This document shows positions 3,462 through 54,088 of a stretch of DNA of 64,000 nt, one piece after another. The stretch lies in sequence record PV800129.1; one strand, given 5' to 3'. A program made the translations under genes and the position numbers. Each line of letters opens with the position of its first letter. Positions within the stretch are counted from its first letter, which is position 1. The notes under the pieces are model-generated. The model was not told the DNA's origin, ran no database searches, and saw nothing but the letters and a program-made list of their open reading frames with translations. Source of the stretch: Pseudomonas phage TIETA.

Positions 3462-3740
3462 TCAGTCCTCCTCTCCTGTGATAGCTACCCTAGTCAGTCT
3501 CCACACTTTCCGAGGGAGCCTAACGAGGAATAGCATAGTCATAAATGGTACTGCGATAGGCCAGAATATTCCAGCCAACACCGCCCGGGCCTCTCTCTTA
3601 CGCCTCTCTGTACTTTCTCCCCTCCACCCAAGAAGTGGTCGTAGAGATTCCCATACGAACATCCCTATCACAGAGTAGAACAATAGGCAGACCACTCCGA
3701 CGACTATGCATACGAGAATGAGAAGCCCTACTTGTTCCAT
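3462..3740 (-). CDS. small membrane protein (92 aa)
   Basis: hydrophobic stretches LLILVCIVVGVVCLLFY and IFWPIAVPFMTMLFLV. Confidence 0.5.
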   Translation of the reverse strand: MEQVGLLILVCIVVGVVCLLFYSVIGMFVWESLRPLLGWRGESTERRKREARAVLAGIFWPIAVPFMTMLFLVRLPRKVWRLTRVAITGEED

Positions 3741-4039
3741 GGTGCGATCCTCTTAAGTAGTTTACGGCTGTTCCAGATAGACAGAGCCCACTTAGGTAAC
3801 AACACCACTTTCAAAACGCTGTATGTTGCGTAGAGTAGCAGAAAGCTAGCATACACTGTGAATGTAATAGGCCATAGCAGTCCCAGTACAATGGCAAAAG
3901 CCTCGATACCCTCTCTGTGATCTTTAGTCGCACTAGCTGGGAAGTTATCTTTGAAATACTCCGTGATACCCATGTAGGTCCACATGAACGCAATTCCCCA
4001 CGCGAGCGCGAGGACGAATAGCATTGGGATTATCTCCAT
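3728..4039 (-). CDS. small membrane protein (103 aa)
   Basis: three hydrophobic helices. Confidence 0.5.
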   Translation of the reverse strand: MEIIPMLFVLALAWGIAFMWTYMGITEYFKDNFPASATKDHREGIEAFAIVLGLLWPITFTVYASFLLLYATYSVLKVVLLPKWALSIWNSRKLLKRIAPWNK

Positions 4040-4455
4040 TACTCACCTCCTTTGCGAATCAAGTCGAAGTAGGCCCACACGTAAAAGTTACACCATAGCC
4101 GGCCAAGAGCCGAGTTAGCCGATGTGTCAACCTCGTCTCCTGTGGAAACTAGGTCAGCGAATACCTGAGACGCTACGTTTCTATAGTCGGTCAGGATTTG
4201 GTCCGGCGGATTATTCGCAAATATAGCCACAAGATCAGGATCATGTCTTTCGTCTAGATTACTCATTACCGAGTTGAGAGGACCGATTCCAAAGTTTTTA
4301 TCTAACCATCCTTTAAAATACTGAACATCTTCGACGGTTACGTTAGAGCTAGTATCCATGGCAAGCTCCTCCAGAATATAACACATGTAAGGTTCCGGCT
4401 GGTTTAAGAAGAATATCCGCATGCCTTCCTTGATCAGTGCTGCAATAGAATTCAT
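4039..4455 (-). CDS. paralogue B of tandem small-protein pair; carries inserted ~37-aa segment identical to the N-terminus of baseplate J-like protein
   Basis: probable start MNSIAALIKEG with AAGGAGG RBS; shares EPYMCYI...NFYVW(A/S)YFDLIRK with upstream paralogue; segment DQILTDYRNVASQVFADLVSTGDEVDTSANSALGRL equals residues ~15-50 of 42463..43926. Confidence 0.55.
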   Translation of the reverse strand: MNSIAALIKEGMRIFFLNQPEPYMCYILEELAMDTSSNVTVEDVQYFKGWLDKNFGIGPLNSVMSNLDERHDPDLVAIFANNPPDQILTDYRNVASQVFADLVSTGDEVDTSANSALGRLWCNFYVWAYFDLIRKGGE

Positions 4456-4736
4456 TTCCCCTCCTTTCGAATCAGGTCGAAATAAGACCAAACGTAAAAG
4501 TTTTTCCAGTTTACCTCGGTATCCTCCAACCGGTTGATCCGCAGGTAATCGCTAACTGACTCCCAAGTGGAGATGCCGTGAGCTTCTAGTAGCCACTCCC
4601 TGAACGATCGATACTCCTTGGAGGTGATCTGCTGCTCTTCTACGAGATCACTCATGATATAACACATGTAAGGTTCTTGATTGTTAACCAAGTAGTCTTC
4701 TAGTCCGATCTTTATCAACTCTGCAACAGTTCTCAT
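4452..4736 (-). CDS. paralogue A of tandem small-protein pair
   Basis: probable start MRTVAELIKIG with AAGGAGG RBS; motifs EPYMCYI and NFYVWSYFDLIRK. Confidence 0.55.
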   Translation of the reverse strand: MRTVAELIKIGLEDYLVNNQEPYMCYIMSDLVEEQQITSKEYRSFREWLLEAHGISTWESVSDYLRINRLEDTEVNWKNFYVWSYFDLIRKEGK

Positions 4737-4790
4737 TGTTCCTCCTTTGAGAGCCCCACTAGGGCTCAAAATTTTTGCTTCGACCTGCGG

Positions 4791-5006
4791 TCAACACATC
4801 ACAACCCAGTTGTACAGGTCAGCCTCCTCGTAAGCCGATGGGTAGCGATTGTACTCCAAGAAGAACGCATGGTCAATAGCTGCGTATTTGGTTGCGAAGC
4901 TGTTGATGTACGTTATAAACCCGTTGTCGCCCCGGCTAAACAGGGCGTATTCCTCAGTACCATCCTTGAACGTATCTAACGCGATAATATACTTGTCGAA
5001 GATCAT
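4791..5006 (-). CDS. hypothetical protein (71 aa)
   Basis: ORF. Confidence 0.4.
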   Translation of the reverse strand: MIFDKYIIALDTFKDGTEEYALFSRGDNGFITYINSFATKYAAIDHAFFLEYNRYPSAYEEADLYNWVVMC

Positions 5007-42462: not shown

Positions 42463-43926
42463 ATGGCTGGAATTACAGCAGAAGGTCTAACGATTAAAGA
42501 CTTGGACCAAATCCTGACAGACTACAGAAACGTAGCCTCTCAGGTCTTCGCCGACCTAGTTTCAACTGGAGACGAAGTTGACACGTCTGGTAACTCTGCT
42601 CTAGGCCGTCTGATCGGCGTAGTTGCTCCATCGGACGAAGCTATCTGGGAAGTTATCCAGATGGTGTATAACTCCTTCAACCCGGCAGCCGCAACTGGCG
42701 TGGCTCTGGACAACCTAGTGTCCTTCTCGGCAATTAGCCGGCATGCTGCCCGTCCGACCCGGGCTCAGGTTGTTCTAGAGGGCAACATCGACACCGTTAT
42801 TAACTCGCCTCCCGCTAAGATGATTTCCAGCAGTACAGGCCGAGTGTTCCACCTGCTACAAGGCGTGATCCTCACTCCTAAAGCTTGCTCTGGTGTTGGA
42901 ATCTTCCCTCAGACAGTAGGCAACGACCTGACATACGAGCTTAAGATGTACGTTGATGACATTAACACAACGTCTATCAAGTACACAAGCCCTACCACTG
43001 GTACAGTAACATCCGAGTCCATCCTAGCAGGACTGGCCGCAGACGTAGCTACAAATCACGGAAATACCTTGACAAGCTACGAACAGAATGGTATACTTTT
43101 CATAGTACCTATTGACCCATTCAACACCAAGACTTTCGAAGAAGCCTCCAACCTGAGTATTCAGAAGGTTAGAAAGCTTGGTATCGCTGTTGACGACGTT
43201 ATTGGTCCTGTGCCTCAGCAAGCTCTAGCTATCGATACGATCTCCATTCCTATTGCCGGATGGGACAGCGTTATCAACCCTGTTCCAGCTATCACTGGCC
43301 GTCTGCGTGAGACCGACGATGAGCTTCGCGAGAGATTTCGAAACTCTAAATTCGTACAAGCCACCAACATTCTGGAGTCCCTGATCGACGGTCTGATGAA
43401 CGTAGAAGGAGTCGAGGATGTTAGGATTATCGAAAACGATACCGACAACCTAGACCCCGTTCACGGAGTCCCGGGTCACTCGTTCCTTCCAATCGTTCTT
43501 GGTGGTATTCCTACAGAGGTTGCACAGTCTATCTGGCTGAACAAGCCATTCGGGATTGGCTCTGTTGGAGATACAGAGGTTCAGGTGGTAGACAGTCTGG
43601 GCTATACACATAGAGTCAACTACCAACGCCCTGTTGAGGTTCCAATCGAGATCAAGATCAGTGTAACAAACACAGGATCGATGCCAGAGAACATTGAAGA
43701 TATCCTACGGCCAAGGATTGTAGCGTACGGAACTGAGAATTACAAGATCGGAGACGACGTAATTTATTCTCGATTCTATGCCCCAATCATGGAAATCCCG
43801 GGCTTCCAAGTGAACAGCCTGACGATTGCTAAGAAAGGACAAACTCAAGGTATGGCGAACATCGAAATCGGGTTCAAAGAAGTGGCTACATTCGCCGCAG
43901 CAGATATCACCGTAACTACGGTGTAA
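42463..43926 (+). CDS. baseplate J-like wedge protein
   Basis: 487 aa following W-like gene; N-terminal 36 aa duplicated in early gene 4039..4455. Confidence 0.5.
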   Translation: MAGITAEGLTIKDLDQILTDYRNVASQVFADLVSTGDEVDTSGNSALGRLIGVVAPSDEAIWEVIQMVYNSFNPAAATGVALDNLVSFSAISRHAARPTRAQVVLEGNIDTVINSPPAKMISSSTGRVFHLLQGVILTPKACSGVGIFPQTVGNDLTYELKMYVDDINTTSIKYTSPTTGTVTSESILAGLAADVATNHGNTLTSYEQNGILFIVPIDPFNTKTFEEASNLSIQKVRKLGIAVDDVIGPVPQQALAIDTISIPIAGWDSVINPVPAITGRLRETDDELRERFRNSKFVQATNILESLIDGLMNVEGVEDVRIIENDTDNLDPVHGVPGHSFLPIVLGGIPTEVAQSIWLNKPFGIGSVGDTEVQVVDSLGYTHRVNYQRPVEVPIEIKISVTNTGSMPENIEDILRPRIVAYGTENYKIGDDVIYSRFYAPIMEIPGFQVNSLTIAKKGQTQGMANIEIGFKEVATFAAADITVTTV

Positions 43927-43944: not shown

Positions 43945-44676
43945 ATGGCTGTCAACCAATTTGACAGAGAAGATTATCTGGAGGTGGCCCGGGAACGGGT
44001 CACTGAACAGTTTAAAGAGAAGCCGATCTTTGATCGCTTCCTGCAAGTGCTATTGTCTGGTAAGTTTGATATCCAGAATGCACTGGAAGACCTCCAGACT
44101 CTCCGGTCTCTGGACACAGCCACCGGGAAGCAACTGGACATTATCGGAGACATTGTAGGGCGACCACGCGGTCTAGTGTACCAAGATATTTTCAACTATT
44201 TTGGATTCGCTGGAACGGAGCGTGCAGGTTCTTTCGGAAGCCTGTCGGACCCTACGGTCGGTGCTCCATGGTACTCGGTCGGTGCTCCAACTGGTAACGC
44301 CAGAGAGCCGAGCGACGAAGAGTATCGGATGATCCTGAAAGCAAAGATCATCAAGAACAGAACAAACTCAACCCCAGAGCAAGTTATCGAAGCTTATAAA
44401 TTTGTATTCGGGGTTCCTGAAGTATTCCTAGAGGAGTACGCTCCCGCTGCTGTCCGTATCGGCATCGGTAAGATTCTAACGAACGTAGAGCGTAGTCTTC
44501 TATTCGACCTAGGTGGTGCGGGGGCGTTGCTTCCTAAGACTATCGGGGTTAACTACACATACACTGAGTTCCAAGCTGGCCGGGTATTTGCTACAGAAGG
44601 CTTCCCCGGAGGACAAGGCGTTGGAGACCTAAACGATCCCACTGTTGGTGGAATTCTGACCAACCTAGTGACATAA
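43945..44676 (+). CDS. baseplate protein (gpI-like)
   Basis: 243 aa between J-like and fibre genes. Confidence 0.4.
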   Translation: MAVNQFDREDYLEVARERVTEQFKEKPIFDRFLQVLLSGKFDIQNALEDLQTLRSLDTATGKQLDIIGDIVGRPRGLVYQDIFNYFGFAGTERAGSFGSLSDPTVGAPWYSVGAPTGNAREPSDEEYRMILKAKIIKNRTNSTPEQVIEAYKFVFGVPEVFLEEYAPAAVRIGIGKILTNVERSLLFDLGGAGALLPKTIGVNYTYTEFQAGRVFATEGFPGGQGVGDLNDPTVGGILTNLVT

Positions 44677-53552: not shown

Positions 53553-53583
53553 ATATTTCCTCCTTTATTTTAAATTTACTAGA

Positions 53584-53817
53584 TTAATTGTCAAACCAAC
53601 CGAGATTAAGGGCGTGCTCCAAGGCTGCGAGAAGATTCTCAGCGTCCATGCGGTCGCTAATTGACACGCGGCGCCATGTGATGCCCTCTTTGTTTCTAGC
53701 TACAATATAGGCCGAGGAACTATCTCTTCCCTTTATTAACGAGCTTGCAAACTCAGTCTTTCCCCCGAACACTATCTCGCTAACTTTTTGGGACGGCTCT
53801 CGAATATCAATCTTCAT
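53584..53817 (-). CDS. small protein of MKIDIR family, paralogue 1 (77 aa)
   Basis: start MKIDIREPS with AAGGAGA RBS; shares SEIVFG...DAENLL.ALE.A..LGWF with next gene. Confidence 0.5.
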   Translation of the reverse strand: MKIDIREPSQKVSEIVFGGKTEFASSLIKGRDSSSAYIVARNKEGITWRRVSISDRMDAENLLAALEHALNLGWFDN

Positions 53818-53854
53818 CGTGCTCTCCTTGTTAAAAATTGTTAGATTTGATAGA

Positions 53855-54088
53855 TTACTTGTTAAACCAACCGAGGTCAATAGCTCGCTCTAAGGCCAGT
53901 AGCAGATTTTCAGCATCTAGAAGGTCACGGATCGCGATCCAACTGCCGCTGTCTCCCGGTAGACCATCTGTGATATATACAGGTATGTCGCTGTACTCGC
54001 TCTTTTTAAGCCCGCAGGCACAGGCTACATTGTCTCCGAAGACAATCTCGCTGACTTCCCTTGCCTCGTCTCGAATATCAATCTTCAT
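53855..54088 (-). CDS. small protein of MKIDIR family, paralogue 2 (77 aa)
   Basis: start MKIDIRDEA with AGGAGA RBS. Confidence 0.5.
   Translation of the reverse strand: MKIDIRDEAREVSEIVFGDNVACACGLKKSEYSDIPVYITDGLPGDSGSWIAIRDLLDAENLLLALERAIDLGWFNK

Follow-up and report, generated by a model that had tools for sequence, protein, structure and literature searches.

How does a piece of a phage baseplate protein come to lie inside a small accessory protein, and does it have any role there? The question is raised by a stretch of 64,000 nucleotides from Pseudomonas phage TIETA (sequence record PV800129.1), referred to here as the window. Over the 1.3 kb that was compared, this DNA is 99.9% identical to that of Pseudomonas phage vB_PaM_EPA1 (EPA1), a member of the genus Pakpunavirus. 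One of two small neighboring genes, here called paralogues A and B, shares a peptide with the baseplate J-like protein (J). A preliminary description of the window had proposed that selection maintains this peptide in both of its settings, and that the copy is not recent. The features that are relevant to the question are collected in Table 1.

Table 1. Positions of the paralogues, the shared segment, and the baseplate genes in the window
Feature	Position	Strand	Description or basis
Paralogue A (EPA1_11, 94 aa)	4452..4736	-	Short type of phrog_2614 protein, canonical for the family
Paralogue B (EPA1_10, 138 aa)	4039..4455	-	Small accessory protein of phrog_2614, bearing the J-derived patch
Captured segment, 36 codons (DQILTDYRNVASQVFADLVSTGDEVDTSANSALGRL)	4096..4203	-	Codon alignment; C11-type J allele as source
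Baseplate J-like protein, Triplex large subunit (487 aa)	42463..43926	+	Matches to P7-1 gp88 and phrog_6
Resident J codons 15-50, JG004-type counterpart of the captured segment	42505..42612	+	Codon alignment; inverted repeat
DUF2612 protein (243 aa), putative Triplex small subunit and partner of J	43945..44676	+	APWYSVG motif; context only

Two accessory paralogues and a shared baseplate peptide

Paralogues A and B are adjacent on the minus strand, around 40% identical, and hold in common the motifs EPYMCYI and NFYVW(S/A)YFDLIRK. They had been described as tandem paralogues, and this is borne out by their full-length membership of the same protein family, phrog_2614. Residues 1-93 of A align with profile positions 3-104 of 105 (E 6.2e-33), and residues 1-137 of B align with the same positions (E 1.7e-31). 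Within the family alignment of 12 sequences, Y-M-C-x-I near residue 23 is invariant, as are the columns of the C-terminal W-x-N-F-Y-V-W-x-Y-F-D-L helix; A and B both have the N-terminal helices that the family conserves, as well as its C-terminal W-x-NFYVW-x-YFDLIRK helix. The form of around 94 residues, to which A belongs, is the canonical form of the family. In contrast, the linker of B has 53 residues where canonical members have around 11, and 36 of these 53 are foreign and derived from J. Homologues are found in N4-like Pseudomonas phages (LIT1, PEV2, and KPP21) and in Pseudomonas phages of around 60 kb. A Pfam search with A and B returned no significant match, a PDB sequence search with B returned the J peptide only, and a Foldseek search against PDB and BFVD gave a sole match, to a family member from phage KPP21. 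B is annotated as hypothetical in MN013356, and members of phrog_2614 are frequently mis-annotated as 'wall-associated receptor kinase-like 20-like protein'.

The two genes form part of a longer array. In EPA1, all genes from around position 1650 to beyond 8700 lie on the minus strand in one array, which is found downstream of a nicotinamide phosphoribosyltransferase gene and ends at an annotated terminator. The start codon of B follows a strong AGGAGG ribosome-binding site and shares the bases ATGA with the stop codon of A, which gives B the look of a normally translated gene in a coupled array. The preliminary description had regarded B as a protein expressed early. The homologues of A and B in phage PAK_P4 are gp133 and gp132, respectively, whereas the published early region of that phage encompasses gp080-gp124 (PMC5563952). 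At 4039-4070 and 4452-4475 on the minus strand, the conserved C-terminal codons of the two paralogues (…AAAGGAGGTGAGTAATG and …AAAGGAGGGGAAATGA) double as the Shine-Dalgarno sequence and the overlapping start of the next gene. As the same codons serve both purposes, the conservation of the C-terminal 'RK(G/E)G(E/K)' may partly reflect translational coupling and not protein function.

The second partner in this relationship is the baseplate protein. J matches P7-1 gp88 (PDB 9zd7) over residues 1-487 with 1054 bits and a handful of substitutions, and also matches phrog_6, the baseplate wedge subunit (E 1e-59). It is on these PDB and PHROG matches that the family assignment is based, since the score against Pfam PF04865, Baseplate_J (19.4 bits), is below the gathering cut-off of 21.1. 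J belongs to the group of Baseplate J, T4 gp6, Mu gp47, and TssF-like wedge proteins. B does not. The match of B to gp88 is confined to B residues 84-120 and gp88 residues 14-50, the rest of B being phrog_2614, and thus B harbors a 36-residue fragment without the remainder of the J fold. Residues 15-50 of gp88 are the captured peptide save for one Gly-to-Ala change. The N-terminus of J is itself highly uniform; across 120 Pakpunavirus records, residues 1-60 have an identity of at least 99% (100% in all rows shown), and the six J alleles that were compared encode one and the same 36-residue peptide.

Residues 85-120 of B and 15-50 of J are identical at 35 of 36 positions. The preliminary description, which gave 36 of 37, was therefore correct about the match itself and slightly out in the count. 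At the DNA level 93 of the 108 nucleotides are identical, and of the 15 differences 14 are synonymous and fall at third codon positions, the remaining one being at a second position (GCT Ala in place of GGT Gly), in keeping with the original remark that the differences are nearly all silent. The two copies form an inverted repeat (B arm at 4097-4204), and no other in the 64-kb window reaches 40 nt; in blastn the insert gives an E value of 2e-29 against 2.3 Gb of sequence; the match is therefore not due to chance.

The donor allele and the replacement in B

The relatives of the insert were sought by blastn of its DNA against 50,697 phage records (2.3 Gb). The best matches outside the insert itself are to the J genes of C11, phiMK, PaGz-1, and SPA05, at 95.8%, followed by ITTPL/JHP at 93% and PAK_P1 at 92%, whereas the JG004-type J found in the window and in most of the genus matches at only 87%. 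Expressed as nucleotide differences over the segment, the insert is 4 away from C11 J (104/108 identical, with the first 85 nt identical), 7 from ITTPL, 8 from PAK_P1, 15 from the resident J and from Kat, and 16 from PaSz-1. The first 340 or so nucleotides of J (42463-42803) exist in two allele classes, JG004-type and C11-type, which are around 16% apart in DNA. The J alleles of Kat and PaSz-1 are mosaics, being JG004-type for around 150 nt at the start and C11-type thereafter. A better donor was looked for with exact and degenerate patterns in the IMG/VR and JGI metagenomes, and these searches returned the phiMK J only. At the level of sequence, these comparisons show that the insert was copied from a J allele of the C11/phiMK/PaGz-1 class and not from the resident J. 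The reverse direction, from B to J, was rejected, since other genera, in which B has no insert, preserve the peptide in their J homologues.

This identification of the donor changes how the silent differences are to be read. By Nei-Gojobori counts in the 108-nt segment, the resident J and C11 J differ by 14 synonymous and no nonsynonymous changes (pS 0.49, pN 0). The insert differs from the resident J by 14 synonymous changes and one nonsynonymous change (pS 0.49, pN 0.013), and from C11 J by three and one, respectively (pS 0.106, pN 0.013). Of the 14 silent differences between insert and resident J, 11 are ordinary differences between J alleles. The silent divergence is thus, on these counts, a divergence between J orthologues that arose under the constraint of J itself and was inherited by the insert. 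Since the differences came with a diverged donor allele, they do not indicate that selection acts on the B copy, and the apparent long-term purifying selection in two contexts, on which the preliminary description had relied, is explained away. With respect to C11 J, the closest donor, at most three synonymous changes and one nonsynonymous change have occurred since capture (binomial p = 0.058, not significant). One of these four differences (synonymous; GCT at segment codon 32) is shared with the JG004 allele class, and the other three, one of them nonsynonymous, are found only in the insert; all three lie in its final 24 nt. The case carries a more general warning that a low dN/dS between two copies within a genome does not signify selection on both when the source of one may be a diverged allele of a gene that is itself under strong constraint.

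The nature of the event is best seen by comparison with B orthologues that do not have the insert. The preliminary description had referred to an insertion of around 44 residues. Such a figure holds against paralogue A, but against the orthologues of B the event is a replacement, in which 15 codons (KDWEDYWDGWYMGRA in PAK_P1-type B) gave way to 35, a net gain of 20. The insert-less orthologues (PAK_P1, PAK_P4, and Ab02 types) are 119-120 residues in length, and have D-KDWEDYWDGWYMGRA-W or close variants where B of the window has D-QILTDY...SALGRL-W. The replacement falls in the linker that immediately precedes the conserved C-terminal helix, a region that has 11, 33, or 53 residues in the family alignment.

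Short identities are found at the edges of the replaced segment. At the left junction, PAK_P1-type B reads CC[GGAC]AAG and J reads TT[GGAC]CAA, with GGAC in common. Near the right junction GGCCG is common to both, and neither parent has the codons CGG CTA that are found at the junction itself; the closest B sampled that has no insert is the PAK_P1-type, with a protein identity of only around 74%. Together, the microhomology at the left junction, the replacement structure, and the location in an indel-prone linker point to a patch that would have been made by microhomology-mediated (illegitimate) recombination or by template switching. The incoming ...GRL-W restores the resident ...GRA-W entry (G-R-x-W) to the conserved helix, and this may be the reason why this recombinant survived. 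The replaced and incoming segments also have a common D....DY......GR pattern, which could reflect an older relationship instead of simple microhomology.

Carriers of the insert and its spread

The insert is found in 10 records, representing seven phages, among about 120 Pakpunavirus records that contain the region. The carriers are EPA1, ZGC, SPA01, PaSz-1_45_92k, B8, Pa-U, and GaW-2019a, the last of these a 7.4-kb record. Where recorded, the carriers come from China and Thailand; EPA1 was isolated from hospital sewage, for which the country is not recorded. The insert is identical at 108 of 108 positions in every carrier examined (EPA1, SPA01, PaSz-1, and B8). The idea that the shared segment is a sequencing or assembly chimera, or some other laboratory artefact, which the preliminary description had raised as a possible refutation, has the oddity of a structural-gene fragment within an accessory gene in its favor and nothing else. 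Seven phage records, deposited separately and differing in their flanking alleles, have the identical insert, and the J allele to which it corresponds does not occur in the carrier genomes, so it cannot have come from mis-joined reads of the same genome. An artefact is accordingly ruled out as the explanation.

Around the insert the genomes are variable. The B allele differs by only 0-3 nt among carriers, whereas mosaicism is evident in the genes beside it; in SPA01 the insert-bearing B lies next to a PAK_P4-like A with 66 mismatches, and PaSz-1 diverges at 4800-5000. A near-invariant B allele amid differing neighbors indicates that the insert arose once and was then spread by homologous recombination. 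The resident J is of the divergent type in the segment in all carriers in which it was compared (EPA1, ZGC, Pa-U, SPA01, and PaSz-1, thus excluding B8 and the GaW-2019a fragment, which lacks J), a pattern that is drawn from few independent genomes and is not statistically meaningful.

Beyond these carriers the insert is rare. PAK_P1-, PAK_P4-, and Ab02-type B genes are without it, and in a collection of 5.8 billion proteins the members of the B family fall into four clusters at 90% identity, of which one alone has the insert. The preliminary description had named a lack of insert-bearing B homologues in relatives as a refutation of its proposal, and such homologues are indeed largely missing, as B in most relatives has no insert and the carriers amount to one 90%-identity cluster. 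Independent captures were sought by tblastn against 50,697 phage records, in which second copies at E<=1e-7 appear only in nine known carrier records, with one further weak match at an E value between 1e-7 and 1e-2. A search of 1.84 billion representative proteins with the 36-residue peptide found a truncated J and an unrelated repeat protein only, and the IMG/VR and JGI metagenomes yielded neither independent captures nor more carriers. The sequences thus show a single origin and a restricted distribution, with subsequent spread as the probable course.

Several observations on the region accompany these results. PAK_P1, YS35, and C11/JG004-type phages have the B-type gene only, and both the copy number and the allele combination of A and B vary across the genus. 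In B8 (vB_PaeS_B8, OQ225162.1) a single hybrid gene at 940-1356 replaces A and B (window 4039-4736). Here the N-terminus of A (MRTVAELIKIGLEDYLVNNQEPYMCYI) is fused to the remainder of an insert-bearing B by a 281-nt deletion, as would be expected if the two paralogues had recombined unequally where both encode EPYMCYI. Finally, CP042877.1, 'Bacillus phage GaW-2019a' (7,379 nt), is 99.8% identical to window positions 3700-5000, insert included. It is attributed to a Bacillus cereus phage despite its Pseudomonas Pakpunavirus sequence, and is almost certainly a contamination or a mislabel in the database.

A probable mosaic patch and its possible functions

The account that we favor, and consider probable, is that the segment is a sub-genic mosaic patch, produced by one microhomology-mediated copy from a C11-class J, spread by mosaic recombination, and carried in B as a tolerated passenger. 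In this sequence of events, around 105 nt of the 5' end of J would have been copied in an ancestor, with the J frame kept, into the hypervariable linker of B. The copying would have occurred by template switching or a similar process, either in a C11-type genome by itself or during co-infection by different pakpunaviruses. Homologous (mosaic) recombination would then have carried the chimeric allele of B into genomes with a JG004-type J, including that of the window. The capture would be a single event and fairly recent.

Sub-genic mosaicism in tailed phages is accounted for in the Hendrix/Hatfull model by illegitimate or microhomology-mediated recombination, with templated patch insertion by template switching. 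The present case is alike in that a short ectopic donor piece appears to have been copied between non-homologous genes, with 4-5 nt of identity at or near the junctions and replacement of a recipient segment, and in that the new allele seems to have spread among close relatives by homologous recombination. However, most described mosaic joints are found at gene or domain boundaries, whereas here the donor lies inside an essential baseplate gene and the recipient is a small accessory ORF that lies 38 kb from it and is encoded on the other strand, and the frame and sense have been preserved to give a chimeric protein. The event is thus of a known kind, and what is unusual is the presence of a piece of an essential baseplate protein in frame inside an accessory ORF. 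It provides a datable example of a phage accessory protein gaining sequence, in which the donor, the class of recipient, the junctions, and the spread can be read from public genomes.

That the patch is a tolerated passenger is the most likely reading of its place in an indel-prone linker, together with the restored G-R-x-W helix entry, and it probably has no new function. Three features of the chimera are compatible with a selected function, but do not require one. The J frame and sense are kept in B, the chimera has persisted in phages from China and Thailand as well as in EPA1, and the ratio of one nonsynonymous to three synonymous changes leans to constraint (p = 0.058).

The alternative, in line with the roles of mimic, assembly regulator, or decoy that the preliminary description had put forward, is that the captured helix and loop of J have given B a new function, allowing it to bind a partner in the Triplex of the baseplate or to act as a decoy for a host sensor of the baseplate protein, with selection then keeping the peptide in B. 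The candidate partners would be gp89/GP075, the second copy of gp88, and the N-terminus of the short tail fibre. In P7-1 the Triplex is made of two copies of gp88 in different conformations and one of gp89, joined by an extended helical bundle, and gp89, the Triplex small subunit, acts as the anchor of both tail fibres (PMC13338283). The N-termini of the short tail fibres also touch the helical bundle of the Triplex (PMC13338283). In the window, the counterpart of gp89 is apparently the ORF that follows J, as judged by gene order and size; its PAK_P4 homologue is annotated as DUF2612. Phage K8 has a 243-aa DUF2612 protein, GP075, with the same APWYSVG peptide as this ORF, and tandem duplication of that peptide results in an extended host range (PMC9887876). 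GP074 of K8, which from gene order would be the J homologue, interacts with both GP075 and GP076 in a two-hybrid assay (PMC9887876).

The captured segment comes from the N-terminal region of the Triplex large subunit, and as the Triplex subunits are joined by a helical bundle (PMC13338283), the peptide is plausibly part of a protein-protein interface. In the AF2 model of the J monomer there is a helix at residues 14-32 in an N-terminal 100 residues with pLDDT of 30-44, a low confidence that is expected of a region that folds only in complex. In the model of B the same residues appear as a helix at 85-104 of low confidence, which extends out of a helical core predicted with more confidence. In J the peptide shows strong conservation, other genera included, and the patch is in frame and kept in seven phages, with changes since capture of 1N:3S. 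The main argument for selection falls, however, since the silent differences were inherited from the donor allele. The insert is also rare, of single origin, and invariant among carriers, with no independent capture in the phage, protein, and metagenome searches; it amounts to only 36 residues, and in the model of B its pLDDT is about 50.

A new protein function thus seems unlikely to us. Its specific form, in which the chimeric B would display the conserved N-terminal helix of the Triplex large subunit and so bind a baseplate partner (gp89/GP075, gp88, or the short tail fibre) or else an immune sensor of the host, is if anything a little more doubtful. If true, B would be a newborn assembly modulator or decoy that arose through in-frame capture from a structural gene and is still only a few mutations from its origin. 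In some respects B would then resemble the decoys and mimics of host defense, where a small accessory protein bears a piece of a structural protein, but B has no conservation across lineages and the likeness is by analogy only. A newborn protein with a baseplate interface peptide could be tested by means of the natural insert-plus and insert-minus alleles in near-isogenic phages.

A role at the level of RNA can also be envisaged, in which the 108 J-sense nucleotides in the B transcript would pair with a cis-antisense RNA over the 5' end of J, and so sponge it or perturb the antisense control of baseplate genes. An antisense RNA of this sort, PAK_P4as11, is annotated on the basis of RNA-seq in PAK_P4 (KC862300.1), and covers J nt 13-413, the captured segment included. 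It is found at 1513-1913 of that record, equivalent to around 42475-42875 of the window, and nearby baseplate genes likewise have antisense RNAs (as10 and as12). These RNAs have been proposed to damp the expression of structural genes early in infection (PMC5563952). However, 15 of the 17 antisense RNAs of PAK_P4 are located in structural genes (PMC5563952), so an overlap with the captured segment is expected by chance. Moreover, the insert has around 15 mismatches in 108 nt to the resident J of the carriers compared (15 in EPA1 and 16 in PaSz-1), with a longest perfect run, measured in EPA1, of 14 nt; an antisense RNA made by these phages would be mismatched to the same degree. Such an RNA role is accordingly rated as highly improbable, and the mosaic patch carried as a passenger is retained as the preferred explanation.

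One further repeat was noted in the window. The segments at 53570-53655 and 53841-53926 form an 86-nt direct repeat with 73% identity and a spacing of 271 nt, which may represent another small tandem pair of paralogous genes or repeated regulatory regions.
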